A stretch of 64,000 nucleotides of DNA from assembly GCA_965248925.1 (NCBI GenBank), contig CBDFLE010000006.1, positions 2,080,001 through 2,144,000 of the forward strand, written 5' to 3'. Positions 1 to 61,301 of the stretch are shown one piece after another. The notes under the pieces are model-generated. The model worked only from the letters and a program-made list of their open reading frames with translations, was not told where the DNA came from and did not search any database. Positions within the stretch are counted from its first letter, which is position 1. Every line of letters starts with the position of its first letter. A program made the translations under genes and the position numbers. Origin of the DNA: Candidatus Multivoradales bacterium (GTDB lineage: Bacteria > Acidobacteriota > Thermoanaerobaculia > Multivoradales > J023).

Positions 1-282
1 ATGCACGGTGAGGCGATGTCGCGGCGAAGTCACCCACACGGTGAGGCCACTCTGCTCAATGGGTTCGAGCTGCGAGGCGAGATCGCGATAGGTGCCGGTG
101 AGAAAAGACAGCTCGATACCGTCATCCGCCACCAGAGGTGCCGCCAGCGCCATCAGCGCCGCCCAGGCCAGCAGCGAGAGGGCAACGACCGCTAACGAGC
201 AGCATCGCTGGGAGGCTGAGCGGGGGCTGACCAATTTCCGAAATTCCGCCGCACGGGTGTAGGACTGAGTCGGGGAGAGCAT
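1..282 (-). CDS. Exported hypothetical protein, N-terminal part only (runs off the left window edge)
   Basis: ATG at 282-280 directly follows the TAG of the VWA gene (TAGATG). The frame is open to base 1: MLSPTQSYTRAAEFRKLVSPRSASQRCCSLAVVALSLLAWAALMALAAPLVADDGIELSF..., with a hydrophobic signal-like stretch. Not in the supplied ORF track. Confidence 0.6.
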   Translation of the reverse strand, partial: MLSPTQSYTRAAEFRKLVSPRSASQRCCSLAVVALSLLAWAALMALAAPLVADDGIELSFLTGTYRDLASQLEPIEQSGLTVWVTSPRHRLTVH

Positions 283-24737: not shown

Positions 24738-26171
24738 ATGACAGATGGCGCCCCACTCCTCGAGCGGCTATTCACCCTCGATTTCTCCGAACAGTCCTAT
24801 CCCATCGAGAGAATCGACGGTCAGGTGCCGGACTTCGTCCGCGGCACTTACTACGTCAACGGCCCAGCCCGCTTCGGCCGTGGTGAGCTGCGCTACCGCC
24901 ACTGGCTCGATGGCGACGGCATGGTGGCGGCGCTGGCCTTCAGCGAGGGCGGCGTGCGCTTCACCAATCGCTTCGTCCGTGGTACCAAGCTAGTGCAAGA
25001 AGAGGAGGCTGGACGAGCGCTCTACCGGACCTTCGGCACCGCTTTCACCGGCGACCGGCTCAAGCACGGTGTCGGTATCGAATCGCCACTCAACGTCAGC
25101 ATCTGGAAATTCGCCGGCAAGCTGCTAGCCTTCGGCGAACAGGGGCTGCCGTACGAGATCGATCCCGTCACTCTCGAGACCCTTGGCGAGTACACCTTCG
25201 GCGGACGGCTCAACGGCATCAGCCCATTCTCCGCCCATCCCTGCTTTGACGATTCGAGCGGCGAGATGTTCAATTTCGGCATCTCCTTCTCGGCCATGCA
25301 CCCGCTGATCAACCTCTACCGCTTTGCCGCCGACGGCCAGATGATCTACCGACGGCGGCTGCCCATCCCCTATCCCTGCTCGGTCCACGACTTCTGCCTC
25401 AGCCCTCGCTACGCGGTGGTCTACCTGAGTCCACATCTGCTCGACATGGAAGCCATCAGGGACGACGGCAAGACCATCATGGAAGCTCTCGACTGGCAGC
25501 CCGAGCGCGGTAGCCAGCTGCTCATAGCCAGCCGCGAAACCGGCGAGACGGTCGCCTCGGTCGAACTCGGCTCGCGTTACTGCCTGCACCTGATCAACAG
25601 CTTCGAAGAAGGCGGGCGACTGACCGTCGACGTGGTCGAACTCGACCGGCCGGTCTACGATCAATACCAAGTGATCCCCAACCTCTTCACCGACCTCCTG
25701 GCCGGGCGACCGGTGCGTTACGTCATCGACCCAGCAACTTGGAAAGTCCTGGAGACTCGCGAACTCAAATACGACCGCGAGCCCGACTTCCCGGCCATCG
25801 ACCCCCGCCACTGGGCCCAGCCCTACGACCACTTCTGGATGCTCGGCATGTCCAAAGCCGGCCAGCGGGGACGCAAGTTCTTCGACCAATTGGTGCATCT
25901 CAGCTGGTCCCAAGAGAGCACTAGCGATATCTACCAGGCCCCTGCCGGCCACTACCTTGGATGCGAACCGATCTTCATTGCTGATCCTGAAGATCCCACT
26001 GGTGGCCTGGTGATCTGCAAGCAGTTCGACGCCGAGAGGCTGCGGGATGCCTTCCTGCTCTTCGATGCCCACAACGTCGCCGCTGGCCCGGTGGCGACCC
26101 TGCACCTCAAGGAACCGACCCCGCCGGGGTTTCATGCTTTATTTCACCCGGCAGGGGCGAGTGATGGGTAG
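24738..26171 (+). CDS. Carotenoid oxygenase/RPE65 family dioxygenase (lignostilbene/apocarotenoid-cleaving type)
   Basis: 'GTYYVNGP', 'HWLDGDGMV', and four Fe-ligand His in 'SAHP', 'SVHDF', 'LHLINSFE', 'GFHALF'. Confidence 0.9.
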   Translation: MTDGAPLLERLFTLDFSEQSYPIERIDGQVPDFVRGTYYVNGPARFGRGELRYRHWLDGDGMVAALAFSEGGVRFTNRFVRGTKLVQEEEAGRALYRTFGTAFTGDRLKHGVGIESPLNVSIWKFAGKLLAFGEQGLPYEIDPVTLETLGEYTFGGRLNGISPFSAHPCFDDSSGEMFNFGISFSAMHPLINLYRFAADGQMIYRRRLPIPYPCSVHDFCLSPRYAVVYLSPHLLDMEAIRDDGKTIMEALDWQPERGSQLLIASRETGETVASVELGSRYCLHLINSFEEGGRLTVDVVELDRPVYDQYQVIPNLFTDLLAGRPVRYVIDPATWKVLETRELKYDREPDFPAIDPRHWAQPYDHFWMLGMSKAGQRGRKFFDQLVHLSWSQESTSDIYQAPAGHYLGCEPIFIADPEDPTGGLVICKQFDAERLRDAFLLFDAHNVAAGPVATLHLKEPTPPGFHALFHPAGASDG

Positions 26172-26287: not shown

Positions 26288-27436
26288 TCAGATTTCCCCG
26301 GGAAGGTTCCTTGAGATCAACACTTGCATGATTTGGCTACTGCCTTCGATAATCTCCATCGCCCTGGAGTCGCGCAGATAGCGGGCCACCGGATAATCGG
26401 CGGAGAGACCGTTGGCACCGTGCAGCTGCACCGCCGCCGCCGCCGCCGCCGTACAGGTTCGGGAGGCAAAATATTTGGCTATCTGGATTTCTCCAGTGGC
26501 GCCCGGATCGCCAAGCTGCCGCAGATAGCCGGCCCGGTAGCACAGCAGGCGGGCGGCACGGGTGCTGACCACCATCTCGGTGAGCTTTCGCTGGACCAGT
26601 TGATGCTCGCTCAGCAGCTTGCCGAACTGCTGCCGCTCAGAGGTGTAGTCGAGACTGGCGTCGAGGCTGGCCTGGGCGATCCCAACCGACCCCCAAGCGA
26701 CGCTGTAGCGACCCAGGTCGAGACCAGCGGAGGCCACATGGGAAAAGCCGAAGCCCGGCCTCCCGACCATATTCTCGCGTGGAATGCGGCAACCATCGAA
26801 GGTGAGTTCGGCCAGCATGGAGGCCGCTGTACCCATCAGGCCATGGATCGGCTGGCGCGAGAAACCGGCGGCGTCGGCAGGCACCAGAAAGGCCGCGGGG
26901 CCCTCCTCACACTGCGCCAGCACCAAGATGATGTCGGCCACCTGACCATAGGTGATCCACTTCTTACGCCCATCAAGGATCACTTCATCACCCTCAAACC
27001 GAGCCCGCGTCGTGATGTGGCGAGCATCGCTACCCACCTCGGGCTCGGTGAGGGCAAAGGCTCCGAGAAGCTCGGCGCTGGCCATCCTGGGTAGCACCGT
27101 CTCCTTGAGGTGTTTGCTGCCCCAGCGAAAGACGCAGAAGGTCGTCATGTCATGCACGGTCAGCAACGAGCGGACCGACGAACAGGCGCGACCGATCTCC
27201 TCTGTCAGAATGCCGTAGGTGATCGCATCCAAGCCGCCCCCGCCTACCTCCTCGGGGAAAGGCGTGCCGAGGTAACCCCGCTGGACCAGCTTGCGAACGA
27301 ACTCGCTGGGCACTTTCTCTTGCCGCTCCCAAAGTCCGGCATGAGGAGCGACTTCCGCCGCCGCGAAGCGTCTGAATTCCTCTCTCTTGGCGACCTGCTC
27401 GGCCGACAGTTCAATACGTATGCCCTCTTCGTTCAT
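26288..27436 (-). CDS. Acyl-CoA/acyl-ACP dehydrogenase
   Basis: 'FALTEPEVGSDA', 'GRKKWIT', 'RQQFGK', 'AVQLHGANG', 'EIIEGSSQI'. Confidence 0.92.
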   Translation of the reverse strand: MNEEGIRIELSAEQVAKREEFRRFAAAEVAPHAGLWERQEKVPSEFVRKLVQRGYLGTPFPEEVGGGGLDAITYGILTEEIGRACSSVRSLLTVHDMTTFCVFRWGSKHLKETVLPRMASAELLGAFALTEPEVGSDARHITTRARFEGDEVILDGRKKWITYGQVADIILVLAQCEEGPAAFLVPADAAGFSRQPIHGLMGTAASMLAELTFDGCRIPRENMVGRPGFGFSHVASAGLDLGRYSVAWGSVGIAQASLDASLDYTSERQQFGKLLSEHQLVQRKLTEMVVSTRAARLLCYRAGYLRQLGDPGATGEIQIAKYFASRTCTAAAAAAVQLHGANGLSADYPVARYLRDSRAMEIIEGSSQIMQVLISRNLPGEI

Positions 27437-28039: not shown

Positions 28040-29182
28040 ATGAAGAAAGCCAAGCGTCGCAACCTCACGCGGGTGCTCTCGGCGATGGCGCTGGGTGCAC
28101 TGCTCGCCCAGGCCAGTCAGGGGGCAATCTTCTCCCGCGAAAGGCTGAGGATCCTCGGCGACTTCCGCACCAGGTTGGAAAGTGATTTCGACTCCCAGCG
28201 GGCTGACGGCAGGGCACGGGAAGATCGCACCCGCCTGCGGGTTCGGGCCCGGCTGGGACTCGATTACGCTGCCAGCGATCGCTGGTCATTCGCCCTTCGC
28301 TGGCGCTCTGGAACCGCCGACAGCCATCAATCGCCACACATCACAGTGCTCGACTTCGACCACAACGACACCGGCGACGCTGATTTCAACCTCGACCGCT
28401 GGTACCTGAAGCGGCAGGGAAAGAAAGCTTGGGCCTGGATCGGACGCAACAATTTGCCCTTCTGGAAGCAGAACGAACTCTTCTGGGATAGCGATGTCAC
28501 CCCCGCCGGCCTCGGTTTCGGTTTCGAGACCACCGTCGGTAACAGCCAGAATCTCGCTCTCAATGCCGGTTATTTCTCACTACCGGTGGGCCTGCGCGAT
28601 TTTGCCGGCAACCTGGGCGTCGCGCAGCTGGTGTACGCATCGAGTCGTCTGACCGCCGCGGGGAGCCTGTTGTTGTTCGACGCCAATAGCGGTGACGCGA
28701 ATGCCGCCAGGCTGCTGCGCGGCAATGGCCTCCGCGACTACACTCTCTGGGTAGGATGTCTGCAGTTAAAGCTCAAAGCCGGCAGCCGACAGCTCACCCT
28801 GGGAATCGACGGGGTATACAACAGCAAAGACTACTCGGCCGCCGATACCGATCCGATAACCGCTGCCAACCATGACCAGACCACCGGCTTCGTCCTTTCG
28901 GCCAAGCTCGGCGGCACTCGCGAACAAGGGGATTGGCTGGCGGCGTATTACTACGCCGAAATCGAAGCCCTGGCGGTCAATGCCTCTTTCTCCCAGGACG
29001 ACTGGCTGCGCTGGGGCTCCGCCAACGAGACCCGATCGAGTGATTTCAACGGTCACGAGCTGCGCTTTGCCTACGCCCTGGAGAAAAACGTCAAGTTGGT
29101 TGCTCGACTCTACTTGGTGGAAGCCATCACTAGCAGCGAAGACGGTGGTCGCTTTCGGCTGGATCTCAACTACACTTTCTAA
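28040..29182 (+). CDS. Putative outer-membrane beta-barrel porin
   Basis: Signal peptide; 'GDFRTRLE...RTRLRVRARLG', 'LFWDSDVTPAG'; C-terminal beta-signal 'RFRLDLNYTF'. Confidence 0.8.
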   Translation: MKKAKRRNLTRVLSAMALGALLAQASQGAIFSRERLRILGDFRTRLESDFDSQRADGRAREDRTRLRVRARLGLDYAASDRWSFALRWRSGTADSHQSPHITVLDFDHNDTGDADFNLDRWYLKRQGKKAWAWIGRNNLPFWKQNELFWDSDVTPAGLGFGFETTVGNSQNLALNAGYFSLPVGLRDFAGNLGVAQLVYASSRLTAAGSLLLFDANSGDANAARLLRGNGLRDYTLWVGCLQLKLKAGSRQLTLGIDGVYNSKDYSAADTDPITAANHDQTTGFVLSAKLGGTREQGDWLAAYYYAEIEALAVNASFSQDDWLRWGSANETRSSDFNGHELRFAYALEKNVKLVARLYLVEAITSSEDGGRFRLDLNYTF

Positions 29183-29275: not shown

Positions 29276-32110
29276 ATGAGTCTCAGAGCGCCATTTCACT
29301 GCCACTGGCACTTGCTGACGATCCTCGCAACGATCGTCGGACTGCTGGCCATTGCTTGCACCGAGCGCTCGCCAGCCACGGATCCAGCAGTCGACTCGCT
29401 GGCCGAGGGTTCCTGGCCCACCGAGTCACTAAACTCCGCCGCCGGTGCGACCAAGAAGCTCTTTCTCGATTCGATCCAAGGCGGCGCTTTGGACCCCGAG
29501 GCGGCGGCACAAATCTTCACCCAGGGCTTTCGCGGCGAGGACTTTCACCAGCGCCCGACCGACGACCCTCGAGTCGAGTCGGGGATCTCCCTGGCCGAAT
29601 GGCAGGCAACGGCGGCCGAGCTCGACGCGGCGACCTTCCACCAACGCTGGAATGCCTATCTCGCCAACCTCGGTGAAGTGCAGAGCGTCGAGATCCACAC
29701 CTGGGAGATCCAGCTGCGACCGCAAGCCGACGGCCAGGCTGGCCTGGAAACCCGAGAAGCGGTGTGGATCCTCAGTCAGTTGCCGGATGGCCGACTGCGC
29801 GAAGAGCGGCTCTACCTGATCATCGACCTGATTGAGCTGGCTGGCGATAGCGGCTGGCGAATCGCTAGCCTGCGCAGTGCCGATGGCCGCACCAGCATCG
29901 CCGCGGGGCCGTTCTTCCACGATGTCACCCACCGAGTGCTGCCTCCTGGTTTCGACCAGATCGGCGCCCAGATCTACACCGACGGCGGACCGGTGCTGGC
30001 CGACTTCGACGGCGACCACGATGTCGACCTCTTCATGCCCCGCCTGCACGCCCCGGCGAGGCTGTACGAAAACGACGGTTCGGGCCACTTCGAGGACGTC
30101 ACCACCCGCCGCGGCCTGGAACTCAACCTCCTGCGGCAGGGATCCAACAGCGGTCTGTTTCTCGATCTTGACCGCGATGGCCTGCTGGACTTGGTGATCG
30201 GCTCCAAAGAACATGGCCTGCTCCTACTGCGCAATGATGGCAACCGTTTCCACGACGCCACCGGCAGCGAGCCGCTGGCCGAGGCCGGTGATTGGGAGTC
30301 GCTGGCGGCGGCGGACTACGATGGCGACGGTTGGATCGATATCTACCTCACCCAATACAATCTGATCGATGCCGACCATCAACCCGAGAGCTACATCGAC
30401 GCCCAAGATGGCCGCCCCAACGTGCTGCTGCGCAATCTCGGAGGTGAAGGCACTACCTTCACTTTCGCAGATGTCACCACCGCCGCTGGCCTCAAACCGC
30501 AGAGCGAGCGCTGGAGCTATGCCGCCTCGTGGGCCGATTACGACCGCGATGGTGACCTCGATCTTTTCGTCGCCAACGACTACGGCCGCAACAGTCTGTA
30601 CCGCAACCGCGGCGGGGCCGCCGGTTTCGACGAAGTGGCTAGTGAGGTAGGCGCCGACGACCTGGGCAATGGCATGGGCGCCTCGTGGGCCGATCTCGAC
30701 GGCGATCTGTGGCTCGATCTCTACATCTCCAACATGCAGTCCTTCGCCGGCAACCGCATCACCCGGCTCGAGAACTTCCCCGGCTCGGACGCCGAACGCA
30801 CCCTCTACCGCCGCTTTTCCCAGGGCAACACCTTGCTGCACAATCTTGGCGACGGCACCTTTGAGGACGCCACTGAAGGCGCTGGCCTCCGCGGCGCCTT
30901 CTGGGCCTGGGGCAACTTGGCTTTCGACTACGACGCCGACGCCGACCTCGATATCTTCGTCTGCGGCGGTTTCTACACCGGTGTTTCGGCGAAAGACACG
31001 TGAAGCACCTTTTGGCGCCAGGTCATGGCGTCCGAGAGCAGCGGCCAGAGTCAGAACCGTGAGCAAGGCCATCGCAACCACTTCCGGATGTTGCAAGAAG
31101 AGGGTCTGTCGTGGAGCGGCCGCGAACCCAACACCCTGTTCCAGAACCGTGGTGTGGGTGCGGACGGCAACACCACTTTCGACGAGGTGGGCAACGTCCT
31201 CGGGGTCTACCTGCGTCTTGATAGCCGCGGCGCAGCGGTCGCCGATCTCGACGGCGATGGTGATCTCGACCTGGTGGTCTACAACCGCAACAACCCGACT
31301 TTGAAGATCTACCGCAACGACACCCACGGACAGGGCAATTTGGTGCTGGTCGATCTGCGTGGCAATGCTAGCGGCACGCTGGCGGCCGGCGCCCAAGCCG
31401 TACTTACCTGTGCCGGCGAGCAGCAACTCAGACAGGTGGAGATCGGCTCGGGCTTCCTTTCGCAGGGCCCACCGACGCTGCATTTCGGCCTCGCCGCTTG
31501 CCCGCAGATCTCCTCCATCGAGGTGCGCTGGCCCTCGGGCGAAGAGCAGCGCTGGCAGGACTTACCGGTCAATCAGCGGCTCACCCTGACCGAAGGCAGC
31601 GACGGTTTCACCGCCACACCTCTCGAACGACGCAACTATAATCGCAACGAGCTGGCGGTGGCGGCAGGGGAACTATCAGCACCTCGCCCCGACCTCAGCT
31701 TCGACCCCGTCGCTGGCGGCGAGTCGATCGCCCTGGCCGATCTCGACAACACTACCGTCGTGCTCAACTTCTGGGCCACCTGGTGTACCGCCTGCGTCGC
31801 CGAGATGCCCGAACTCGAGGAACTGCACCAGCGGTTCGGGCGGCGAGGAGTGCGCTTCTTCGGCATCTCCTTCGACGAAGGGCGGCCGCAAGCGGCGGTG
31901 CGTGAGTTTCTGGCCGAGCACGGCATCACCTACGAGCAGGTGTGGGGTAGTGTCGAGCAGCAGCAGCCCTTCGCCTCCCTCGGCGCCTCTCCACCGGGGG
32001 CCATCCCGCTGACCGCGATCCTCCATCGCGGCACCGTGCGCGACGTGCAGGTAGGGTCCTTCGATGGGCAAGCTATGGCCGAGTTGTTAGACAGATTGCT
32101 AGAAGAGTAG
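29276..32110 (+). CDS. FG-GAP/CRTAC1-ASPIC-UnbV lipoprotein with a C-terminal TlpA-like redoxin domain; probable selenoprotein (UGA at 31001-31003). Otherwise two ORFs, 29276-31003 and 31025-32110
   Basis: Lipobox LAIA-C; many DxDxDGxxD repeats; the TGA is in frame with the downstream ORF (KDT-U-STFWRQVM); ASPIC/UnbV 'GSGFLSQ...LHFGL...IEVRWPSG'; 'NFWATWCTAC'. Confidence 0.75.
31001..31038 (+). promoter_or_regulatory. Candidate bacterial SECIS element
   Basis: UGA, 10 nt, then stem GGCGCCA / loop GGUCA / UGGCGUC, extendable by UUUU:GAGA pairs; loop GGUC lies at +18..+21 after the UGA. Confidence 0.7.
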
Positions 32111-32155: not shown

Positions 32156-35100
32156 GTGCAGCCAACCCCTAACGCTGGCCACTGGCCATCCTTGACTTCC
32201 TTCAGCAGGGCTGCCTGCGCCACCCTGCTGCTGGTGTTCGTCGCCTGCGCCCCGCCCGAGCCACAAACCGATCTCGCCTCGGTGCGCGCCCTACTGGCCC
32301 GCGGCGTGGCCCATGCTGAGATCGACCAGTGGGCCAAGGCCCTGGAACTCTTCCAGCAAGCCGCCGAGCTGGCTCCCGAAGAACCGGTTGCCGCCTACGA
32401 TTTGGGATTGGCCCTGTTCCGCACCGGCGACCGGCAAGCGGCCCGAGAATGGCTCGACCGCGCCCAGGCGAACGCCCCAGCCGACCTCGGGGCACGTATC
32501 GAGCTACTGCGAGGCAAGCTGGCCTACGAAGACGGTAACGACCCGCAAGAACTCGAAGCCCACCGCCGCGCCAGCAGTCTTGATCCGGAAGAAGCTGCCT
32601 ACGCCCACGCTTTGGCGCAGCTCTATCTGCGACTCGGCGCAGAGGAAAAATATGGCGTACAGGTCGAGCAAGCACATCGCCTGTGGCCCAACAACGCTTA
32701 CCTGGCCACTGAGGCCGCGCTCTGGCGCCTCGACCAAAGCGACCTCAGGGTCCGTCGCCAAGGGATGGCGCTACTAGAAACACTGGCTGCCCGCAGTCCC
32801 CGCGATGAGATCAACGCCTACCTGGAGAAGGGGCGCCTTCAGCTCGAAGCGAAGCCGACCCCCGCCAAGGTGCCCACGCCACTGCGCATCGTGGCCAACC
32901 TGCTGCGTCCCACCAAGTCTTTCCGGAGCGACGCGGCGGAGCTTCAGGCCCGCCTTGAGCCCACCCCGCTGAGCGACCCGACACAGCCCGCGACCGTCAC
33001 CGAGGTTTCGCCAGCCCTCTCTCCGGAGGTGAGCTTCGCCACCGCGGCCCTGGTCCCGGCTCTGCCCTTGGCGGCCGGCGAGAAGATACTGGCGGCAGTG
33101 CTGGTCGACGACTCGACCGCCCACCGCCCCAGCGCGGCGCGCGACGCCGGCATCGCCATCGTCGGTGACCGCGGGCTCTACATGCTGGCTCGAGGTGCCG
33201 CGGCTTTCCAAACACTGGCCGAGATTCCCGGCGAAGTTCACCAGCTGCTCGCTGGTGATGTCAACGACGACGAACGCATGGAGTTGCTGCTGCTCACCGC
33301 TAGTGGTCCGCGGCTGTGGGGCCGCGACGACGCTGGCGAATGGGCCGAGGTCCCCCTCGACGAACAGCTCAGCAGCACCGTCCTGCAACGTGGTTTATTG
33401 GTTGACTTCGAGCACGATGGCGACCTCGACCTGCTGGCCACCGACCCGGCAGGCGCTCTAGTGCTCGTGACCCACCGAGGCGAAGCCGGATTCGGCCCGC
33501 CCACCCCCGCACCCTTGCCAGTCACCACCCCGATTCGGCGTTTGACCTCAACTGACCTTGACGGCGATGCCGACCAAGATTTGGTGCTGGCGAGCGCCAC
33601 AGAGTTGTTGATCCTGCGCAATTGGCGCCAGGGTGAGTTCGCTCTCCAGAGCCGTTTGCCGCTAGCCGAGAATGGACTTCCCCAACAGCTGCTGGCACTC
33701 GACTACAACGCCGACAGCCACCTGGACATCATCGCGCTGCTCACCGAGGGTGTCACCTGCTGGCGCGGCGACGGCCAAGCCGGCCTGCACGCCGATCCGC
33801 AAGCAATGGGGGCCACGACCGATCTTGCCGACCAAGGACAGCCGGCGCACCTCACGGTTGCCGACCTCGACCTCGACGGCGATCTAGACCTACTGCTCGC
33901 CGGCCTCTCGACAACATCACGAGACTCTGCCCTGATGGCATTGATCAACGACGGCCAAGGGCGGTTCACAGCGCGCAGCGACTTGGTCGCAGAACACGAG
34001 ACAGGCAGCAGCGGCGCCATCGTCCTCGACCTCGACGGCGACCACGATCCAGATCTACTCTCCTGGAGCGACTCTGGATCGCTGCAAGCTCTGCGCGGCA
34101 GCGGCGCCGAGGGGCAGCGGTGGTTGCGGCTGCGGCTCCGCGCGCCGGGCCGCAAAGTACCTCGCGACGGGCGCGGTGTCCGCATCCAAGTGGTGGCCGG
34201 CGACCGCATCCAATGGCTAGAGCCACAGCGCCCCAACCTCACTTTGGGACTCGGCCAAGCCCGGCCCGCGCTGATCAAGGCGACCTGGCCCAACGGCATC
34301 AGCGAATACCTCTTCGAACCCGAACCGGAGACCGAGCACATCTTGGAGTTGTCACTGCGAGTCGAAGGCTCGTGCCCCTTCCTCTATGCCTCCGACGGCC
34401 AAGAACTACGCTTCATCACCGACATTCTGGGCCTCGCTCCAGTCGGCATGCTGGCCACCGCCGACACCTACGTACCAGCCGATCCCGAAGAGTATCTGCG
34501 CCTTCCGAGGTGGGTGGCACCTCAGAATGGGGTACTCGAACTAGTGATCACCGAAGAGCTGCGCGAGGTCCTGATTCTTGACCAGGCTGAGCTGGTGGCG
34601 GTCGACGCCAAGCCCCAGGTCGAGGTCTACAACGGCGAGAAATGGCTGATGGACTCGGTGCGCGGCCTTGAGCTGCGCCTGATGAGCCCTTTCGCCGCCC
34701 CGGCCTCGGTCCGTGATGACCGCGGCCGCGAAGTGCTCGAGATAGTGCGCCAGCGCGACGAGCGATACCTGACCAACCATCGCGGCCCCAACCGCTACCA
34801 GGGCGCGGTGACACCGCACCAGCTGACCATTGAACTGCCAACGGCCACCGCCGCCGCCGAACACCCAGCGCTGGTGCTGGTCGGCTGGCTGCATTGGGCC
34901 AACACCAGCACCAACGTGGCCCGCTCCCAAGACCCGCAGGGGGCGCCAATCTTCCCCTACCTCGAAGTACCCGACGGCGCCGGTGGTTGGCGGCGGACGA
35001 CGGTACCGGTCGGCCTACCGGCGGGCAAAACCAAGCCGGTGGTGGTCGATCTCAGCGGCATGCTCGACCCCGCGGACCCACGGCTGCGCATCACCACCGA

Positions 35101-35722
35101 CTTCGAGGTCTACTGGGACCTGATCGCCAGCGCTTCCCTATTGTCGCCGGAGGCAACCCCCCATCACCTCCACCGCCTGGCGCCGAGCAGTGCCGAGCTA
35201 CGTTGGAGCGGTTTCTCGCGCTGGTTCAGGACCGCCGCCAACGGTCCCTACCTCTTCGACTACCAAGACCGCCGCCCCTACCCCTGGCGCACCGACGCCG
35301 CCGGCCAGGAAGTAGTGCTCTCGTGGCAAGAGCACGAGGGCTACTACACCGCCTTCGGACCGGTCGATAGGTTACTGGCCCGAGCCGACGATTCCAGTGT
35401 CGTTCTGGGATCCGGCGAAGAACTCAGACTGAGCTTCGATGTGGCCTCCCTGCCACCCCTGCCCACCGGCTGGCAGCGTACTTACTTCCTACACTCCGAA
35501 GGCTGGGAAAAAGACGGTGATCCCAACGTCTCCTGCTCCCAAACCGTCGAGCCCTTGCCCTACCGCGGCATGACCCGAGATCCTTGCTCCGGCCGCTCGG
35601 TAGCGTCTGATGTGGCCGGTGCGCCGCGGACCCGCTGGGTCGGGCGGGATCGCTTGCAGCGGCGGGTGGGGGCGTGGGGGGACCGGGCCACGCTGCCCGG
35701 ACAAACCAACGCCGGGCGGTAG
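32156..35722 (+). CDS. TPR + FG-GAP repeat + ASPIC/UnbV-like large lipoprotein
   Basis: Lipobox FVA-C; N-terminal TPRs; repeated 'DLDLDGDLDL'; 'GSCPFLY', 'ITEELRE...DQ', 'PAGKTK', 'GWEKDGDPN'. Confidence 0.88.
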   Translation: MQPTPNAGHWPSLTSFSRAACATLLLVFVACAPPEPQTDLASVRALLARGVAHAEIDQWAKALELFQQAAELAPEEPVAAYDLGLALFRTGDRQAAREWLDRAQANAPADLGARIELLRGKLAYEDGNDPQELEAHRRASSLDPEEAAYAHALAQLYLRLGAEEKYGVQVEQAHRLWPNNAYLATEAALWRLDQSDLRVRRQGMALLETLAARSPRDEINAYLEKGRLQLEAKPTPAKVPTPLRIVANLLRPTKSFRSDAAELQARLEPTPLSDPTQPATVTEVSPALSPEVSFATAALVPALPLAAGEKILAAVLVDDSTAHRPSAARDAGIAIVGDRGLYMLARGAAAFQTLAEIPGEVHQLLAGDVNDDERMELLLLTASGPRLWGRDDAGEWAEVPLDEQLSSTVLQRGLLVDFEHDGDLDLLATDPAGALVLVTHRGEAGFGPPTPAPLPVTTPIRRLTSTDLDGDADQDLVLASATELLILRNWRQGEFALQSRLPLAENGLPQQLLALDYNADSHLDIIALLTEGVTCWRGDGQAGLHADPQAMGATTDLADQGQPAHLTVADLDLDGDLDLLLAGLSTTSRDSALMALINDGQGRFTARSDLVAEHETGSSGAIVLDLDGDHDPDLLSWSDSGSLQALRGSGAEGQRWLRLRLRAPGRKVPRDGRGVRIQVVAGDRIQWLEPQRPNLTLGLGQARPALIKATWPNGISEYLFEPEPETEHILELSLRVEGSCPFLYASDGQELRFITDILGLAPVGMLATADTYVPADPEEYLRLPRWVAPQNGVLELVITEELREVLILDQAELVAVDAKPQVEVYNGEKWLMDSVRGLELRLMSPFAAPASVRDDRGREVLEIVRQRDERYLTNHRGPNRYQGAVTPHQLTIELPTATAAAEHPALVLVGWLHWANTSTNVARSQDPQGAPIFPYLEVPDGAGGWRRTTVPVGLPAGKTKPVVVDLSGMLDPADPRLRITTDFEVYWDLIASASLLSPEATPHHLHRLAPSSAELRWSGFSRWFRTAANGPYLFDYQDRRPYPWRTDAAGQEVVLSWQEHEGYYTAFGPVDRLLARADDSSVVLGSGEELRLSFDVASLPPLPTGWQRTYFLHSEGWEKDGDPNVSCSQTVEPLPYRGMTRDPCSGRSVASDVAGAPRTRWVGRDRLQRRVGAWGDRATLPGQTNAGR
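35432..35690 (+). repeat. Copy 1 of a ~260-bp diverged direct repeat (3' end of the TPR/FG-GAP gene)
   Basis: Aligns with 38077-38335, e.g. agcttcgatgtggcctccctgcc...cactccgaaggctggg...gggcgggatcgcttgcagcg. Confidence 0.85.
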
Positions 35723-48602: not shown

Positions 48603-49487
48603 ATGTCGATGGTCGGCCATCACGCCAACAGCTTAGAAACCGGGAATAGAGCGGCCCGGTGGCGCTTTCTCGCTTTCGGTCTTGCCGTCGTCTTGGCGGC
48701 TGCAATTCCGGCCCATGTGGCGGCGCAGGAAGCTGCCGAAATCTTCCGCCAGAGCTGCGTCAGCTGCCACACCATCGGCGGTGGGCGGCTGGTGGGTCCC
48801 GACCTGGCTCAGGTCAGCGAGCGTCAGGAGCGCGAGTGGTTGATCGGCTTCATCGTCGACCCCAAGGGAGTGCTCGACAGCGGCGACTCCTACGCCCTGG
48901 AGCTGAAAAGTCAGGCCGGTGGCGCGCTGATGCCGCCGGTCGCCGGTATGACCCGCCAGCGGGCCGAGGCACTGCTCGACCTGATCCTGGCCGAGTCGGC
49001 CCTGCCGGAGTCTGAATTCGCCGGTCTCGACATCGGCGACGAGCCCTTCAGCACGGTCGATATCGAACAAGGCCGGCGCATTTTTCTCGGTGCCAGACAC
49101 TTATCGAACGGTGGCCCGCCCTGCCTCTCATGCCACACCGTGGGCAGCCTCGGAGCCCTCGGCGGCGGCCGCCTCGGTCCCGACCTGACCCGGGTTTACG
49201 AGCGTCTGCAAGGGCGCAAGGGCCTGGCCTCCTGGCTGTTGGCACCAGCCACCGAAGTCATGCGGCCGGTCTATGCCGAGCAGCGCTTAACCAACGAGGA
49301 GATCCTGCCGCTGGTGGCCTTCCTCGAAGACCAGGCGCGCCATGGTAGCGAGGATCCCGGTACTTCCCAAATCACATTCCTGCTGTTGGGCTTGGCTGGC
49401 GCGGCGATCGCTTTGGTCCTCGCCGATGCCATTTGGCGGCGGCGTTTCCGCGGCGTACGCCGGCAATTGGTCCGAGGTGAGCGATGA
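48603..49487 (+). CDS. Membrane-anchored dihaem cytochrome c (NarC-like)
   Basis: Signal peptide; CVSCH and CLSCH, each followed by 'GPDL'; C-terminal TM helix; ATGA overlap with narG. Start site uncertain. Confidence 0.85.
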
Positions 49488-52400
49488 AGATAAAGACTAA
49501 CAACCCATGGATCCAAGACGAGGTGGACCCTCAGTCCCGCGGCTGGGAGGAGTTCTACCGCAATCGCTGGCAGCACGACAAAGTGGTGCGTTCCACCCAT
49601 GGCGTCAATTGCACCGGCGGCTGTACCTGGCAGATCTACGTCAAGAACGGCATCGTCACCTGGGAGATGCAGGGGCTCGATTACCCCCTCTTGGAGCCCA
49701 GCCTGCCGCCCTATGAGCCGCGCGGTTGCCAGCGGGGCATCTCTTTCTCCTGGTACCTCTACAGTCCGCTGCGGGTAAAGTATCCCTACGCCCGCGGCGC
49801 CCTGCTCGACCTCTGGCGGGCGGCGCGGCAGCGCCACGAGGACCCGGTGGACGCCTGGAAGAGCTTGGTTTCTGACCCTGAGTCGCGGCGCCGCTACCAG
49901 CAGGCGCGGGGCAAGGGGGGCTTCCGCCGCACCGATTGGGACACGGTGCTCGAGCTGATGGCGGCGGCCAATGTCCACACCATCAAGGAGCATGGACCCG
50001 ATCGGGTGACCGGTTTCTCGCCGATCCCGGCGATGTCGATGATCAGCTACGCCGGTGGCTCGCGCTTCTTGCAGCTGTCGGGTGGCACCTCGCTGTCGTT
50101 CTACGACTGGTACTGCGACCTACCCAACGCCTCGCCTGAAACCTGGGGCGAACAGACCGATGTGCAGGAATCAGCCGATTGGTACAACGCCAAGTTGCTG
50201 GCGGTGATGGGCTCGAACCTCAACATGACCCGCACTCCGGATTGTCACTTCGCCGCCGAGGCGCGGCACAACGGCACCAAGATGTGGGTGTTCTCACCGG
50301 ACTTCTCGCAGGTCGCCAAATTCGCCGATGAATGGGTGTCGATCAACGCCGGCCAGGACGGCGCTTGGTGGATGGCGGTCAATCATGTGCTGCTCAAAGA
50401 GTTCCATCACGAACGCCAAGAAGAGAGCTTCCTCGACTACACCAAGCGCTTCACCGACTCCCCCTACTTGGTGGAACTGAAGGCCGAGAATGGCCCTTCC
50501 GGCAAGATACTGCGGGCTGGCCAGATGCTGCGCGCCAATCGCCTGGCACCCTACAAAGAGGTCGAAAATGGCGACTGGAAGTTCCTCATGTGGGATACGT
50601 CCGGTGAGCCACGGATGCCGATGGGCAGCTCGGGTTTTCGCTGGGGCAAGAAAGGGCAGTGGAATCTCAAGCTCGAAGATGGACTGACCGGCAAACCCAT
50701 CGACCCAGAGCTGAGCTTCCTGGAGCAGCCCGAAGACGTGCTGCAAGTCCGCTTCGATGATTTCGGCCAGGGCGAGAACTTGTTGCGCGGCGTGCCGGTG
50801 CGCTACCTCGAAACCGCCGACGGCGGCAAGGTCGCTGTGACCACCGCCTACGACCTGCTGATGGCCCAATACGGCGTCTCTCGCGGTCTCGAAGGTGCCT
50901 ACCCGGCGGACTACGACGACGACGCTCCCTACACCCCGGCCTGGGCCGAGAAGTACACCGGCATGAGCCGCGCCATGCTGCTGCGCTTCGCCCGTGAGTG
51001 GGGCGAGACGGCGCTCAGGACCGGCGGCAAATGCACCATTATCATCGGCGCCGGCATCAACCACTGGTACCACGCCAACCTGATGTATCGCGCCGGCATC
51101 CACGCCCTGATGCTGTGCGGCTGCATCGGCAAGAACGGTGGCGGTCTGGCACACTATGTTGGCCAGGAAAAGCTGGCCCCCGGCGAGTCCTGGGGCGCGC
51201 TGGCCATGGGCAAGGATTGGTACGGGCCCTCGCGGCTGCAGAACGCGCCGAGCTGGCACTACGTCCACACTGACCAATGGCGCTACGAGAAGTCCTTCAC
51301 CGACTACCACACGGTGCCTGAGGGCAACACCCAGGCAGGCGGCCACACCATGGACCATCAGGTCAGGGCGGTGCGCAACGGCTGGCTGCCCTTCTACCCG
51401 CAATTCAACGTCAACAGCCTCGACCTGGTCAAGCAAGCCGAAGCAGACGGAGCAAAGACCGAGGAAGAGATCTCCCAATGGTTGGTCGGGAAGCTAAAGT
51501 CGGAGGAGATTCGTTTCTCGGTAGAGGATCCCGACGCCCCTGAGAACTGGCCACGGGTTTGGTACATCTGGCGCGGCAATGCGCTGATGGCCAGCGCCAA
51601 GGGGCATGAGTACTTCCTCAAGCACTACCTCGGCACGCACACCAACACCATCGCCGAGGATATGGCCGAAGATTCGGTGACGGAGGTCAAGTGGCGCGAC
51701 GCACCGGAAGGCAAGATGGACCTGGTGGTCGATCTCAACTTCCGCATGGACACCTCGGCCTTGTACTCGGACATCGTCCTGCCAGCGGCCACCTGGTACG
51801 AGAAAGCAGATCTCAACACGACCGACATGCACAGCTTTATCCACCCCCTGTCGAAGGCGGTGCCACCCTGCTGGGAGTCGAAGAGTGACTGGCAGATCTT
51901 CCGCGAGCTGGCCAAGAAGCAGTCCGAGGTCGCGGCGCCGCACTTCCCCGAGCCGGTTAAGGACTTGGTGGCGGTGCCCCTGGCCCACGACTCAGCGGCC
52001 GAGATCGCCCAAACGCATATCGCCGATTGGAAGAGCGGCGAGGTCGAGGCCATTCCGGGTAAGACCATGCCGGCCTTCAAGATCGTCGAGCGCGACTATA
52101 AAAACCTTTACAAGCAATTCTGTGCTTTCGGTCCGCTACCGCGCAAGGGCGGCCTCGGTGCCCACGGCACCCATTACCCGATCAAGGACTTCTACGACGA
52201 ACTGGCCGCCCGGCAGCCCTGCCGCGAATGGCCCGAGGAAAACTACCCGTCGATCAAGGAGGACGAAGAGGTCTGCAACCTGATCCTGCAATTGGCCTCG
52301 GTCACCAATGGTGAGCTGGCCTACCGCTCCTACCGCGACATGGAGGAGAAGACCGGTCTGCCGCTGGTCCACCTGGCAGAGAAGAACCGTGGCACCAGGG

Positions 52401-53119
52401 TGACCTACAAGGATTTGCAGAGCCGGGTTCAAAGGCTGATCAACAGCCCCATGTGGTCCGGGCTGACCGAGAATGGCCGCGCCTACTCTCCATTCACTTA
52501 CAACGTCGAGAACCTGGTGCCATGGCGCACCCTCACCGGACGTCAGCACTTCTATCTCGACCACGAGCTCTACCTTGAGTTTGGCGAGCACCTGCCGACC
52601 TACAAGCCGAAACCACTGCCCGCGCAATACGCCGACCTGACCTTCACCGAGGAGGAGCAGGCGTCGATGATGCTCAACTACTTGACCCCGCACGGCAAAT
52701 GGCACATCCACTCGACTTACGGTGACAATCAACGGATGACCACGTTGTCGCGCGGCTGCGAGCCCCTGTGGCTCAATCATCAGGATGCCGCTCGGTTGCA
52801 GATCGAAGATAACGATTGGGTGGAGGTCTACAACGATCACGGCGTGGTGGTCACCCGCGCGGTGGTCTCGGCACGGATCCCGCCGGGCATCTGCATTCAA
52901 TATCATTCACCGGAACGCACCCTCGGGGTGCCCAAGTCACCGCTGCGCGGCAACCGCCGTGCCGGTGGCCACAACAGCCTCACCCGGACGCGCCTGAAGC
53001 CCAACCTGATGGCTGGCGGCTATGGCCAGTTCACGTTCCATTTCAACTATTGGGGTCCCACCGGCTGCAATAGAGACACCCACATCTTGGTACGCAAGCT
53101 GCCTGAGCTGAACTGGTAA
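49484..53119 (+). CDS. narG: Respiratory nitrate reductase alpha subunit
   Basis: '[27 protein letters not shown]', 'EPRGCQRG', '[10 protein letters not shown]', '[12 protein letters not shown]'; no Tat signal. Confidence 0.95.
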
Positions 53120-58184: not shown

Positions 58185-58220
58185 CGCCCATGACTCGTGA
58201 AGGAACGTGAAGGATACGAT

Positions 58221-61200
58221 ATGTCGCACCGAGATCCATCCACCCCAAGCAGCTGGCAAAACCTGGATGAGCTGCGCCCTGAGTCGCTGGCGGTCGACCC
58301 TGCCGAGCGCCCCAAGGCGGCGGCCCTGGCGGTCGACCGGCGTGATTTTCTCAAGGCCAGCGGCTTCTCGCTGGCGATGAGTCTGGCCGCCGGCTGTCAG
58401 CGGACGCCGGTCGAGAAGGCGATCCCTTTCCTGGTCCAACCCGAGGAAGTCGTTCCCGGGCGGCCACTGTTCTATGCTTCGACCTGCGCCGGCTGTACTG
58501 CTGGTTGTGGGGTGTTGGTGAAATGCCGCGACGGGCGACCGATCAAGATCGAAGGAAATGCCGAACATCCGCTATCCAAGGGCGGCCTGTGCGCCGTCGG
58601 CCAGGCCGCGCCGCTCGGCCTCTACGATGCTCATCGCCTCAGCGGCCCACTTAAAGGCGGAGCGCCAGCAGACTGGGACGAGGTCGACCGGCAAATCAGT
58701 CAACAGCTCGATCGCCTGGCGGCGACCGGTGGCAGAGTCCGCCTGCTGACCGAGACCCTCAACGGTCCTACCGAACAGGGGGCGACCGACCGCTTTCTGA
58801 GTCGCTTCGCCGATGCCGAACATGTGGTCTACGACCCGCTGTCGCGGTCGGCGATCGCCCAGGCCCACCGCTACTCTGACGGCAAGGCGCTGTTACCGCG
58901 ATATCGGTTTGATCGGGCTGAGGTGATCGTCAGCTTCGCCGCAGACTTCCTTGGCACCTGGATCTCACCGGTGGAGCACACCGCCGGCTACCGTTCTGGA
59001 CGCGATCTGCAAGGCAAGCCACCACGGCTCTCCCATCATGTGCAGATCGAAGGCCGTCTGTCGCTGACCGGCAGCAACGCTGACCGGCGCATGGTCAAAT
59101 CACCGGCGGAGATCAGCGCCCTGTTGCAAGCGCTCGCCACGGCGGTCGAGCAGCATTCTGGAGGAGGCCATGGCACGCGCGACAGTCACAGCAGCGGCGC
59201 AGGTCATGCTGAGCTGGCCAGCGAGCTGGCGGACCGCCTTTGGCAGGCAGCTGGAAAGTCATTGGTGGTCTGTGGCAGTCAGCACCTGGCCGACCAGGTG
59301 GCAACGCGACGGATCAACCAGCTGCTGGGCAACTACGGCTCGACCCTCGATATCGAACAGCCTTCGCGGCAAAAGCTGGGCGACGACCTACGGCTCACCG
59401 AACTGATCCGAGATCTCACCGTTGGCGCCATTGACGCTCTGCTGATCCGCGGTGTCAACCCGGTCTACGATTTGGCTGGCGACCCACGGCTGGCCACTGC
59501 CATCGCCGAGGTGCCGCTGGTGGTGTCGTTCGCCACCCACCGCGACGAGACCGCCCGCCTGGCGGCCTTCGTCTGTCCCGAACTTCACCCGCTTGAAAGC
59601 TGGCGCGACGCCGAGCCGGTAGCTGGCTTGGTGAGTGTCACCCAACCCACGATCCGGCCCTTGGGAGAAAGTCGCGATTTCATCGCCAGCCTGGCCCGGT
59701 GGACAGGCGAACCGGCCACCGCCCGCGAACAGATGCGCCGCACCTGGCAGCAGCAGATCTTCCCGCGGCGGCGGGCTGAGGCGGCGAGTGATTTTGAACG
59801 CTTCTGGGATCAATCAGTTCACGATGGTTTCGTCAAACTCGAGGCGGCGCTCGCGCCGACCGCCGTGGCCGAGCTGGTAGCGAACCCGGAGCTTGCCAGC
59901 AGCCCGCTAGCCCCCAGCTCGACCGAGGCCGGTGTCTTCACCTTGCTGCTTTACCCCAAGGTGGCGCTGTTGGATGGCCGCCACGCTGAGAATCCCTTCC
60001 TGCAAGAGCTGCCCGACCCGATCACCAAGGTGGTATGGGACAACTACGCCAGTCTGTCTCCCCGTGCCGCCGACGAGCTGGGGGTTGCCCAAGGCGATGT
60101 GGTGCGGCTGCGAGCCGAGGACGAGAACGGAGACGAGGCGGCGGAATTGGAGCTGCCGGTGTTGGTGCAGCCGGGGCAGCACGACCGGGTGGTGGCGGTG
60201 GCCCTGGGCTACGGCCGGGTCGGCACCGAGCGCTTTTCCGACGTGGGCCCGCGCTGGCTAGAGGGCCGGCCGACGGTAGCCCCCGGCGAGCAGGTCGGCG
60301 GCAATGCCGCCACCCTGGCGACCCCCACCATGGGTCAGCGCCTGAGCCACCGCGAGGGGGTTCGCCTGGAGTCCACCGGCGGTCGTCATCCGCTGGCCTC
60401 TACCCAGAGCTACCACTCGCTGGACATGCCGAGCGGCCTCGAACCGGCCTCCGGGGAACCACGGCCAATCGTCCAAGAGACCGTGCTGGCGGCCTACCAG
60501 GCCGACCCCGGCGCCGGTGCCCCCCACGCTCACCACATCGAAGGCGATCTGTGGCCCGAGCACGAGTACGAGGGTCACCACTGGGGCATGGCGATCGACC
60601 TCAACGCCTGCACTGGCTGCTCGGCCTGCACCCTCGCCTGCCAGTTGGAAAACAACGTGCCGGTGGTGGGTAAGGACGAGGTGGCCCGGCGCCGCGACAT
60701 GCATTGGCTGCGGCTCGACCGCTACTACCGCGGCGATCCCGAGGCGAGTGAATCGCTCAACATCGTCCATCAGCCGATGCTCTGCCATCACTGCGACAAC
60801 GCCCCCTGCGAGACGGTCTGTCCGGTGCTGGCCACGGTACACAGCTCAGAGGGGCTCAACCAGCAGGTCTACAACCGCTGTGTCGGCACCCGCTACTGCG
60901 CCAACAACTGTCCCTACAAAGTGCGGCGCTTCAATTGGTTCAATTATCCGCATACCGACTTGATGCAGAACCTGGCTCTCAATCCCGATGTGGTGGTGCG
61001 CTCGCGCGGGGTGATGGAGAAGTGCTCCTTCTGCGTGCAACGCATCCAGGCGGCCAAGCAGGAAGCCAAACAGCAGCGCCGTGAGCTGCTCGATGGCGAT
61101 ATCCAGCCGGCCTGTCAGCAGAGCTGCCCGGCGCAAGCCATTACTTTTGGCGATCTCGCCGACCCGCAGAGCCAGGTGGCTCAGCAGGTGGCGGATCCGC

Positions 61201-61301
61201 GCCACTACCGGCTGCTCGAAGAGCTCAATGTGCGGCCCTCCGTGGGCTATTTGCGGCGAGTCCGACATCGCCACCAGGATCAGGAGACTCACCATGGCTG
61301 A
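58221..61301 (+). CDS. actB: Alternative complex III subunit B (molybdopterin-oxidoreductase-like domain fused to Fe-S domains, Tat-exported)
   Basis: 'RRDFLK'; 'GRPIKIEGN', 'LQELPDPITKVVWDNY'; Fe-S motifs 'CTGCSACTLAC', 'CHHCDNAPCETVCP', 'CVGTRYCANNCPY', 'MEKCSFC'. Confidence 0.88.
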   Translation: MSHRDPSTPSSWQNLDELRPESLAVDPAERPKAAALAVDRRDFLKASGFSLAMSLAAGCQRTPVEKAIPFLVQPEEVVPGRPLFYASTCAGCTAGCGVLVKCRDGRPIKIEGNAEHPLSKGGLCAVGQAAPLGLYDAHRLSGPLKGGAPADWDEVDRQISQQLDRLAATGGRVRLLTETLNGPTEQGATDRFLSRFADAEHVVYDPLSRSAIAQAHRYSDGKALLPRYRFDRAEVIVSFAADFLGTWISPVEHTAGYRSGRDLQGKPPRLSHHVQIEGRLSLTGSNADRRMVKSPAEISALLQALATAVEQHSGGGHGTRDSHSSGAGHAELASELADRLWQAAGKSLVVCGSQHLADQVATRRINQLLGNYGSTLDIEQPSRQKLGDDLRLTELIRDLTVGAIDALLIRGVNPVYDLAGDPRLATAIAEVPLVVSFATHRDETARLAAFVCPELHPLESWRDAEPVAGLVSVTQPTIRPLGESRDFIASLARWTGEPATAREQMRRTWQQQIFPRRRAEAASDFERFWDQSVHDGFVKLEAALAPTAVAELVANPELASSPLAPSSTEAGVFTLLLYPKVALLDGRHAENPFLQELPDPITKVVWDNYASLSPRAADELGVAQGDVVRLRAEDENGDEAAELELPVLVQPGQHDRVVAVALGYGRVGTERFSDVGPRWLEGRPTVAPGEQVGGNAATLATPTMGQRLSHREGVRLESTGGRHPLASTQSYHSLDMPSGLEPASGEPRPIVQETVLAAYQADPGAGAPHAHHIEGDLWPEHEYEGHHWGMAIDLNACTGCSACTLACQLENNVPVVGKDEVARRRDMHWLRLDRYYRGDPEASESLNIVHQPMLCHHCDNAPCETVCPVLATVHSSEGLNQQVYNRCVGTRYCANNCPYKVRRFNWFNYPHTDLMQNLALNPDVVVRSRGVMEKCSFCVQRIQAAKQEAKQQRRELLDGDIQPACQQSCPAQAITFGDLADPQSQVAQQVADPRHYRLLEELNVRPSVGYLRRVRHRHQDQETHHG

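Follow-up and report, generated by a model that had tools for sequence, protein, structure and literature searches.

A 64,000-nt stretch of the genome of Candidatus Multivoradales bacterium (contig CBDFLE010000006.1, positions 2,080,001 to 2,144,000; hereafter the window, in whose numbering all coordinates are given) harbors a gene on the plus strand, 29276..32110, that very probably encodes a selenoprotein. Judging from the sequence comparisons presented below, the in-frame UGA at 31001-31003 would be decoded as selenocysteine (Sec) within a single product of 944 amino acids (aa). The codon lies in the local reading ...AAA GAC ACG TGA AGC ACC TTT TGG CGC CAG GTC ATG GCG TCC... and separates two open reading frames (ORFs), 29276..31003 (575 aa) and 31025..32110 (361 aa), into which ORF calling splits the gene; the true stop is at 32108-32110. 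An earlier sequence-only reading of the window had proposed that both ORFs belong to one frame, and this is confirmed: translation across the TGA yields 944 residues with a single recoded codon, U576. The Sec assignment draws on the conservation of the codon column, a sister clade with Cys at this position and the Sec machinery of the genome. The comparison across genomes shows, at the level of sequence, a candidate recoding signal and its conservation, the Sec machinery, a Sec/Cys pair, and the concerted gain or absence of Sec with a CxxC motif in a fused thioredoxin-like domain, the two being either both present or both lost. The codon, almost certainly one for Sec with its selenocysteine insertion sequence (SECIS), lies in a widespread bacterial family that is uncatalogued among selenoproteins.

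The codon column was located in homologous loci by tblastn with residues 501-680 of the read-through protein. A TGA fills this column in 74 loci from two phyla, the named relatives being Acidobacteriota and Planctomycetota; identity to the window's protein over the query residues ranges from 31 to 100%. In three of the 74 cases two search routes arrived at identical sequences, and removal of L154 (genome G088, flagged as unpublished) alters nothing. A six-frame search of 40 relatives and the source genome itself recovered orthologues (63-75% identical) as well as paralogue-like homologues (33-42%), with one in-frame TGA each; the orthologues align over residues 13-944. TGA was found at the column in 25 of the 36 loci L022-L057 and in 15 of 20 further regions, plus one divergent copy. 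Four other rows had been flagged for an in-frame stop: the TGA of two simply terminates the gene, and the aligned region of the other two, including a TAG row, contains no stop. A sample of 401 genomes of the phylum gave matches at E 1e-55 or better in 90 genomes; 74 of the 108 listed rows had exactly one in-frame TGA, 33 had none and one had a TAA, and the TGA was at the column in 20 of the 27 loci examined. In a second-phylum sample (201 genomes, centered on a Planctomycetota record), 39 genomes matched with 68 rows (57 with one TGA, four with two and seven with none), and all 14 loci examined had TGA at the column. The named relatives in the protein search include metagenome-assembled genomes of Acidobacteriota and Thermoanaerobaculia. 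Tabulation of the aligned codon in homologues, as suggested by the sequence-only reading, thus gave TGA in 74 loci, or Cys in the sister clade described below.

Were the TGA a true stop, the region would contain either two separate genes, for a 575-aa propeller fragment and a 361-aa protein starting at ATG 31025, or a recent pseudogene or sequencing error. Standard ORF calling does yield two ORFs, relatives are annotated in this way in public databases, and TGA is a common stop in the window, where it ends 17 of 34 long open frames. However, the TGA recurs at an identical column across 74 loci of two phyla, which excludes a read error or a fresh nonsense mutation; these, and a pseudogene, were rejected on this ground. 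Moreover, the seven codons between the TGA and ATG 31025 are conserved as protein, in the form of an S-x-F-W-R-Q-V peptide, and the ATG is not conserved as a start, being replaced by CTG or TTG (Leu) in orthologues and by GTG (Val) in more distant homologues. The second product would also lack an export signal and yet complete an exported propeller, and full-length non-TGA homologues read straight through the position. A true stop, in either form, is therefore barely tenable. Among the best 120 database relatives, 69 are fragments of ~540-710 aa that end at ...DT exactly before the U576 column, indicating that gene callers split the whole family; the expectation that ordinary gene callers would split this gene is borne out.

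Two further observations concern the TGA copies themselves. L147 (G013:C44:45556-47947, minus strand) is the divergent copy, with the reading DG-TGA-SCVWRVAV followed by a 7-bp hairpin (GGGUUGC/GCAACCC, loop CGUGUC) after the TGA; its frame closes 68 codons on, and it may represent a decaying or frameshifted Sec form. In the second-phylum sample, genomes G634, G505, G617, G562 and G631 contain up to four separate matches each, with an in-frame TGA in all four matches of G634, G617, G562 and G631 and in three of four of G505; these multiple TGA matches per genome suggest that the Sec form was expanded by duplication in some Planctomycetota.

A hairpin follows 10 nt past the TGA, with GGCGCCA (31014-31020) pairing with UGGCGUC (31026-31032) around the loop GGUCA (31021-31025). 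Sequence and fold both agree with the hairpin described in the sequence-only reading. With a lower stem extension, which has a bulged U31031 in the predicted fold, the SECIS-like element spans 31009..31038 on the plus strand. Two findings place the arrangement above chance, namely its rarity in the genome and the lack of a conserved start at ATG 31025. Both strands of the 7.98-Mb genome contain only 39 TGAs with a GGTC-loop hairpin of at least 5 bp at this spacing. Three of these have open frames on both sides, and the frames of the present gene (578 + 368 codons) are the longest by far; the other two candidates, which have short open frames and low-complexity peptides, were unconvincing as a second selenoprotein gene. 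In a set of 36 distinct TGA flanks neither the TGA nor the loop G-U varies, and the G-U is kept though the encoded peptide changes (WRQV, WRHV, GAV, LTVV). Conservation of a G within the apical loop has been described for bacterial SECIS elements (PMC1794560). Two spacings occur in the family, with GGUC at +21..24 or +24..27 from the U of the UGA, and the loop registers comprise 3, 4 or 5 nt.

Covariation in the stem was analyzed in two sets of sequences. In the first (23 sequences, four of which use the other loop register and were scored as unpaired), 83% of stem cells pair, as compared with 35-64% when the 3' arm is slid; the stem pair 18-28 is CG in 11 sequences, GU in four, GC in three and AU in two, and the covariation score was reached by none of 500 shuffles. 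In the second set (13 sequences), 94% of cells are paired and pair 21-30 is UA in seven and CG in six. Later loci show clean double changes, such as GGCGUCAC-GUG-GUGACGUC, GCGUC/GACGC and GGAGCC/GGCUUC. Synonymous co-variation links the Arg codon's third position to the first position of the Ala, Ser, Pro or Thr codon nine residues past Sec, which selection on the protein hardly explains. Full-length non-TGA homologues with the same peptide (SFFWRQVV) provide a natural control. The comparison covered 81 distinct flanks (54 TGA and 27 non-TGA), including a subset with FWR(Q/H)V-type peptides (41 TGA and 24 non-TGA). Within this subset, a stem of at least 5 bp around the G-U was present in 40 of 41 TGA flanks versus 9 of 24 non-TGA flanks, the mean stem length was 7.0 versus 4.25 bp, and the mean minimum free energy (MFE) was -12.0 versus -8.0 kcal/mol. 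The Val codon in the loop was GUC in 34 of the 41 TGA flanks, and the loop codon of the 24 non-TGA flanks was GUG (10), GUC (8), GUU (3), GUA (2) or GAC (1). The hairpin, which the sequence-only reading had expected to be conserved only in TGA copies, is thus kept in nearly all of these and mostly lost elsewhere; some non-TGA copies (e.g., L189) still form it.

The source genome (G000; six contigs, 96.9% complete) encodes selA (515.6 bits), selB (352.9 bits), selD (282.3 bits) and a tRNA-Sec (70.8 bits; ARAGORN assigns it as SeC, anticodon tca), all above curated cut-offs, so that the four genes whose presence the sequence-only reading proposed to check (selA, selB, selC and selD) are accounted for. 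A Sec-containing formate dehydrogenase, sought in this genome as an internal SECIS control, gave no match above the cut-off and no in-frame stops, and the present gene may therefore be among the few users of the machinery. Two large ORFs of the window on the plus strand, ~49484-53119 and 58197-61301, have weak formate-dehydrogenase-alpha matches (molybdopterin oxidoreductase-like) and no in-frame stops. Across the phylum, selB was found in 37 of 41 relatives and is thus a weak discriminator. Among 27 TGA-form genomes tested, selB was found in 24, and in the remaining three selA and tRNA-Sec were found. Among 26 genomes whose forms are all non-TGA, selB was found in 21 and not in five. The five, all near-complete, are G206, G253, G138 and G243, which belong to one genus, and G340, and for two of them (3 and 9 contigs, 99% complete) tRNA-Sec was likewise not found at E 1e-8 or better. 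It looks as if the Sec trait was lost in this lineage and 'dead' paralogues were retained.

These distributions bear on a second alternative, in which the UGA is read through or acts as a regulated stop without Sec, the hairpin stimulating near-cognate decoding (as Trp or Cys) or pausing, such that short and long products are made. In 40 loci the TGA is followed by A (26), C (13) or G (1); this distribution and the lack of a matching SECIS model in Rfam would be compatible with such a scheme. Nevertheless, the Sec trait is present in 27 of 27 TGA-form genomes, the two complete genomes without the trait have non-TGA forms only, and a sister clade fixes Cys, the sulfur analogue of Sec, at the column; read-through without Sec is accordingly very unlikely.

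The sister clade was identified by a search with the protein of L197, a non-TGA locus with a TGC (Cys) codon at the column. The search led to a clade of ~760-aa proteins, named 'CRTAC1 family protein' by NCBI, from Vicinamibacterales, Arenicella/Gammaproteobacteria and Planctomycetota. Cys is present at the U576 column in 120 of 120 members (52-100% identity, P0122-P0241), within the motif DY-C-TTFWRHDIY, and this invariance establishes that a Sec/Cys pair exists. Among 108 full-length members no other Cys reaches 30% conservation; by this alignment, the column is the putative lone essential chalcogen site of the family. The residues found at the column in 50 full-length non-Sec homologues are Met (21), Ala (9), Ser (6), Asn (5), Asp (4), Glu (2), Phe (1), Gly (1) and Tyr (1). 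The sequence-only reading had expected TGA or Cys at this position. That expectation holds for the 74 TGA loci and the Cys clade and fails for the closest paralogues, which have Met, Ala, Ser, Asn, Asp or Glu instead.

The C-terminal part of the read-through protein, residues 805-917 (31688..32026, plus strand), is a TlpA/ResA-like domain of the thioredoxin fold (Redoxin/AhpC-TSA), recognized by an above-cut-off Pfam match (E 1e-14) and by sequence and fold matches to PDB chains. It carries the redox motif C837-T-A-C840 within W836-C-T-A-C840 (31784..31795, plus strand), as seen in its sequence and in the comparison across the family. The sequence-only reading had paired Sec with this CxxC domain, a proposal that receives strong support at the comparative level. 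An intact CxxC, in the variants WCxxC, [FY]CGPC or xCxxC, is present in all TGA forms with a detectable redoxin tail (45/45 and 11/11, in total 56/56), and in none of 20 non-TGA forms, a sample made up of six loci and 14 AhpC-TSA proteins. Where a non-TGA form has a detectable tail (15 cases), its motif is invariably degenerate and lacks the first Cys (SAAES, TSLLC, KAPLC, QSATC, QSASC, TAPLC, SSPSS, TATPS, AAPAC, ASPQC, ALPPC, AAPRG, WAPPS, ESPAS). Likewise, none of the 14 non-TGA proteins annotated as AhpC-TSA by Pfam has a CxxC anywhere in the protein. By Pfam annotation, L156 and L160 share the same architecture (propeller, UnbV, redoxin and C-terminal tetratricopeptide (TPR) repeats), the former with and the latter without the redox residues. 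The pairing applies to the tailed TGA forms and not to a third Sec subfamily, which comprises 13 loci (~815-830 aa, peptide LPYILSAVA) and has neither a redoxin tail nor a conserved Cys. A thioredoxin-like gene beside its members was sought within those loci, and only two matches, at E 0.23 and 0.40, were returned. As far as can be judged from sequence, Sec in the tail-less proteins must act alone or with a separate partner.

Joint presence or absence of Sec and CxxC is what would be expected of a dedicated reductant for Sec, and a Sec-CxxC relay in the tailed subfamily is the reading that we favor, with some reserve. SelB and tRNA-Sec would decode the UGA under the direction of the hairpin starting 10 nt downstream, as in a bacterial in-ORF SECIS. 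Sec576, with which a helical insert between the last blades begins, would be the lone redox-active or nucleophilic residue. It would be oxidized in turnover and re-reduced by the fused CxxC (C837/C840), which in turn would be recharged from the membrane as with TlpA/ResA-type proteins. This relay, like the export that it presupposes, is something that we infer from the comparisons above, and confidence in any particular chemistry (peroxide, sulfoxide or disulfide reduction) is low. Alternatively, Sec576 may be inserted and serve as a ligand of a metal or cofactor, or as a cross-link partner, on the propeller face, with the CxxC serving another client. The Cys clade and the tail-less Sec subfamily, with a single chalcogen and no partner Cys, would fit such a role, as would the potential metal ligands Met, Asp, Glu, Asn and Ser at the column in paralogues; moreover, galactose oxidase, a propeller with a Cys-Tyr cofactor, is among the weak fold matches (TM-score 0.27-0.40). 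Nevertheless, the column can hold Ala or Gly as well, the resemblance to galactose oxidase is weak, and Sec strictly tracks the first Cys of the fused CxxC (56/56 versus 0/20), and we consider the ligand role unlikely.

Several observations weigh against decoding as Sec or against the relay. By energy alone the hairpin is mildly unusual: over 60 nt the MFE is -20.9 kcal/mol, with a z-score of -1.8, and 8 of 200 shuffles fold equally well. An Rfam scan of 30900-31150 gave no covariance-model match at E up to 10. The 9 of 24 non-TGA flanks with a stem of at least 5 bp indicate that the GC-rich WRQVVA codons can encode part of the hairpin on their own, and the flank statistics treat related sequences as independent, so that their Mann-Whitney P values should not be taken as probabilities. 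Cys is absent from the column in all 50 of the nearest non-Sec paralogues and is present in only one of 27 non-TGA loci (TGC, L197), which implies that the site is dispensable for whatever the paralogues do; the absence is unusual for a selenoprotein and was at first weighed against a catalytic role. The tail-less Sec subfamily, one full-length member of which has no Cys anywhere, means that a CxxC relay cannot be general. Finally, in the AlphaFold2 (AF2) model the predicted local distance difference test (pLDDT) score of the insert carrying U576 is only 58-74. Decoding of the UGA as Sec remains, with these points taken into account, the interpretation in which we have high confidence.

The AF2 model, built from a 46-row alignment, has a mean pLDDT of 86.2 and a predicted TM-score (pTM) of 0.82. 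U576 opens helix 575-588 of a modeled helical insert (575-608) between strands 559-564 and 620-627. The FG-GAP beta-propeller (~residues 230-690; 29963..31345, plus strand), whose annotation is interrupted by the TGA, is matched by seven stretches of FG-GAP_3 in the read-through protein (Pfam, E 3.5e-39) and is followed by a UnbV_ASPIC domain (residues 703-770; 31382..31585, plus strand; PF07593, E 1.5e-21). The same order of propeller and UnbV_ASPIC is common to CRTAC1/ASPIC-UnbV proteins, and murine CRTAC1 (PDB 9etn_A) is matched both by sequence (E 3.6e-19) and by Foldseek (E 5.6e-29, TM-score 0.75 on the target). Unlike CRTAC1, for which we know of no described catalytic role, the 944-aa protein carries Sec within a helical insert and possesses an additional N-terminal domain as well as a fused redoxin domain. 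This N-terminal domain (~residues 45-215; 29408..29920, plus strand) has an alpha+beta secondary structure in the AF2 model, with pLDDT mostly >90, and no Pfam family was matched to it.

The protein begins with a putative signal peptide (29276..29359, plus strand) that ends in a lipobox-like L-A-I-A-C, in which Cys28 would be the site of lipid attachment. Cys28 is preceded by a hydrophobic helix, modeled by AF2 at residues 13-27, and position -3 is Ala rather than Leu. A Cys follows the N-terminal hydrophobic stretch in all seven close orthologues examined. The product is probably exported and lipid-anchored; the lipobox-like motif behind a hydrophobic helix and the Cys kept in orthologues fit the exported lipoprotein of the sequence-only reading, and the lipoprotein status itself stays a prediction.

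Among known systems, bacterial SelB/SECIS genes share with this gene an in-frame UGA, an in-ORF hairpin within ~10 nt, an apical G-U ~20 nt past the UGA, and selA, selB, selC and selD. Escherichia coli fdhF, the archetype of these genes, has a comparable loop sequence and spacing. The present gene differs from fdhF in that it codes for a protein family with no relation to formate dehydrogenase, the family shows two spacings (+21 and +24) and as many loop registers, and Rfam returned no match. The tail resembles PDB chains of the ResA/TlpA/thioredoxin family in sequence and fold (TM-score ~0.8), and WCxxC is common to both. Its scores against the NCBIfam models of ResA (NF002854; 54.6 versus a cut-off of 170 bits) and TlpA (NF047696; 54 versus a cut-off of 230 bits) are far below threshold, and it is therefore classed as TlpA/ResA-like and not as a member of either. 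TlpA/ResA/DsbE-type thiol-disulfide oxidoreductases act as reductants outside the cytoplasm; unlike them, the tail domain is fused to its presumed client. A fused arrangement is also found in Neisseria PilB/MsrAB, an exported methionine sulfoxide reductase with a fused TlpA-like domain that recycles its catalytic Cys/Sec. The two proteins have unrelated catalytic domains, however, and no Msr domain was found by Pfam in the 944-aa protein.

Literature searches, with the supplementary tables of PMC4807772 and PMC12013277 lying outside their reach, found no paper describing an FG-GAP/CRTAC1/ASPIC-UnbV selenoprotein family, in agreement with the sequence-only reading, which knew of no established selenoprotein family among CRTAC1/ASPIC-UnbV proteins. 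Kim et al. 2016 (PMC4807772) give selenoprotein candidates of two planctomycetes in a supplementary table, and their main text, as far as it is accessible, has no mention of 'ASPIC' or 'FG-GAP'. The accessible text of the deep-Sep study (PMC12013277) describes nine new families, none of the CRTAC1/ASPIC-UnbV kind, and points out that families lacking Cys homologues may escape methods based on Sec/Cys pairs, a remark that is consistent with the lack of Cys in the closest non-Sec relatives of the present protein. If the Sec assignment is correct, thousands of database entries of this family would be wrongly split into two "genes", and the selenoproteomes of Acidobacteriota and Planctomycetota would be under-counted. 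The strict co-occurrence of Sec and CxxC provides a testable handle on the function of the CRTAC1/ASPIC-UnbV fold, which is present in vertebrates too. A broader and more tentative proposal, to which we give less than even weight, is that bacterial CRTAC1-like propellers constitute a large, overlooked class of extracytoplasmic redox enzymes that carry a single Sec or Cys on a propeller insert, often with a TlpA-like module of their own, and that repeatedly became inactive as Sec and CxxC were lost together. Such a class would give the CRTAC1/ASPIC-UnbV fold its first catalytic function and would be among the most widespread exported selenoprotein families of soil and marine bacteria, having gone unnoticed because searches rely on Sec/Cys pairs of close homologues.

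Two neighboring genes of the window, an RPE65/carotenoid-oxygenase family gene (24738-26171, plus strand; E 1.5e-97) and an acyl-CoA dehydrogenase gene (26288-27436, minus strand), have no apparent link to the selenoprotein gene. The gene directly behind it (32156-35722, plus strand) encodes a protein of 1188 aa with an N-terminal TPR region and FG-GAP repeats, which lacks the FW motif and a CxxC and is a different propeller paralogue. The 380-aa product of the gene immediately upstream (28040-29182, plus strand) matches Porin_5 (E 1.3e-14) and may act with the exported lipoprotein as its partner in the outer membrane.

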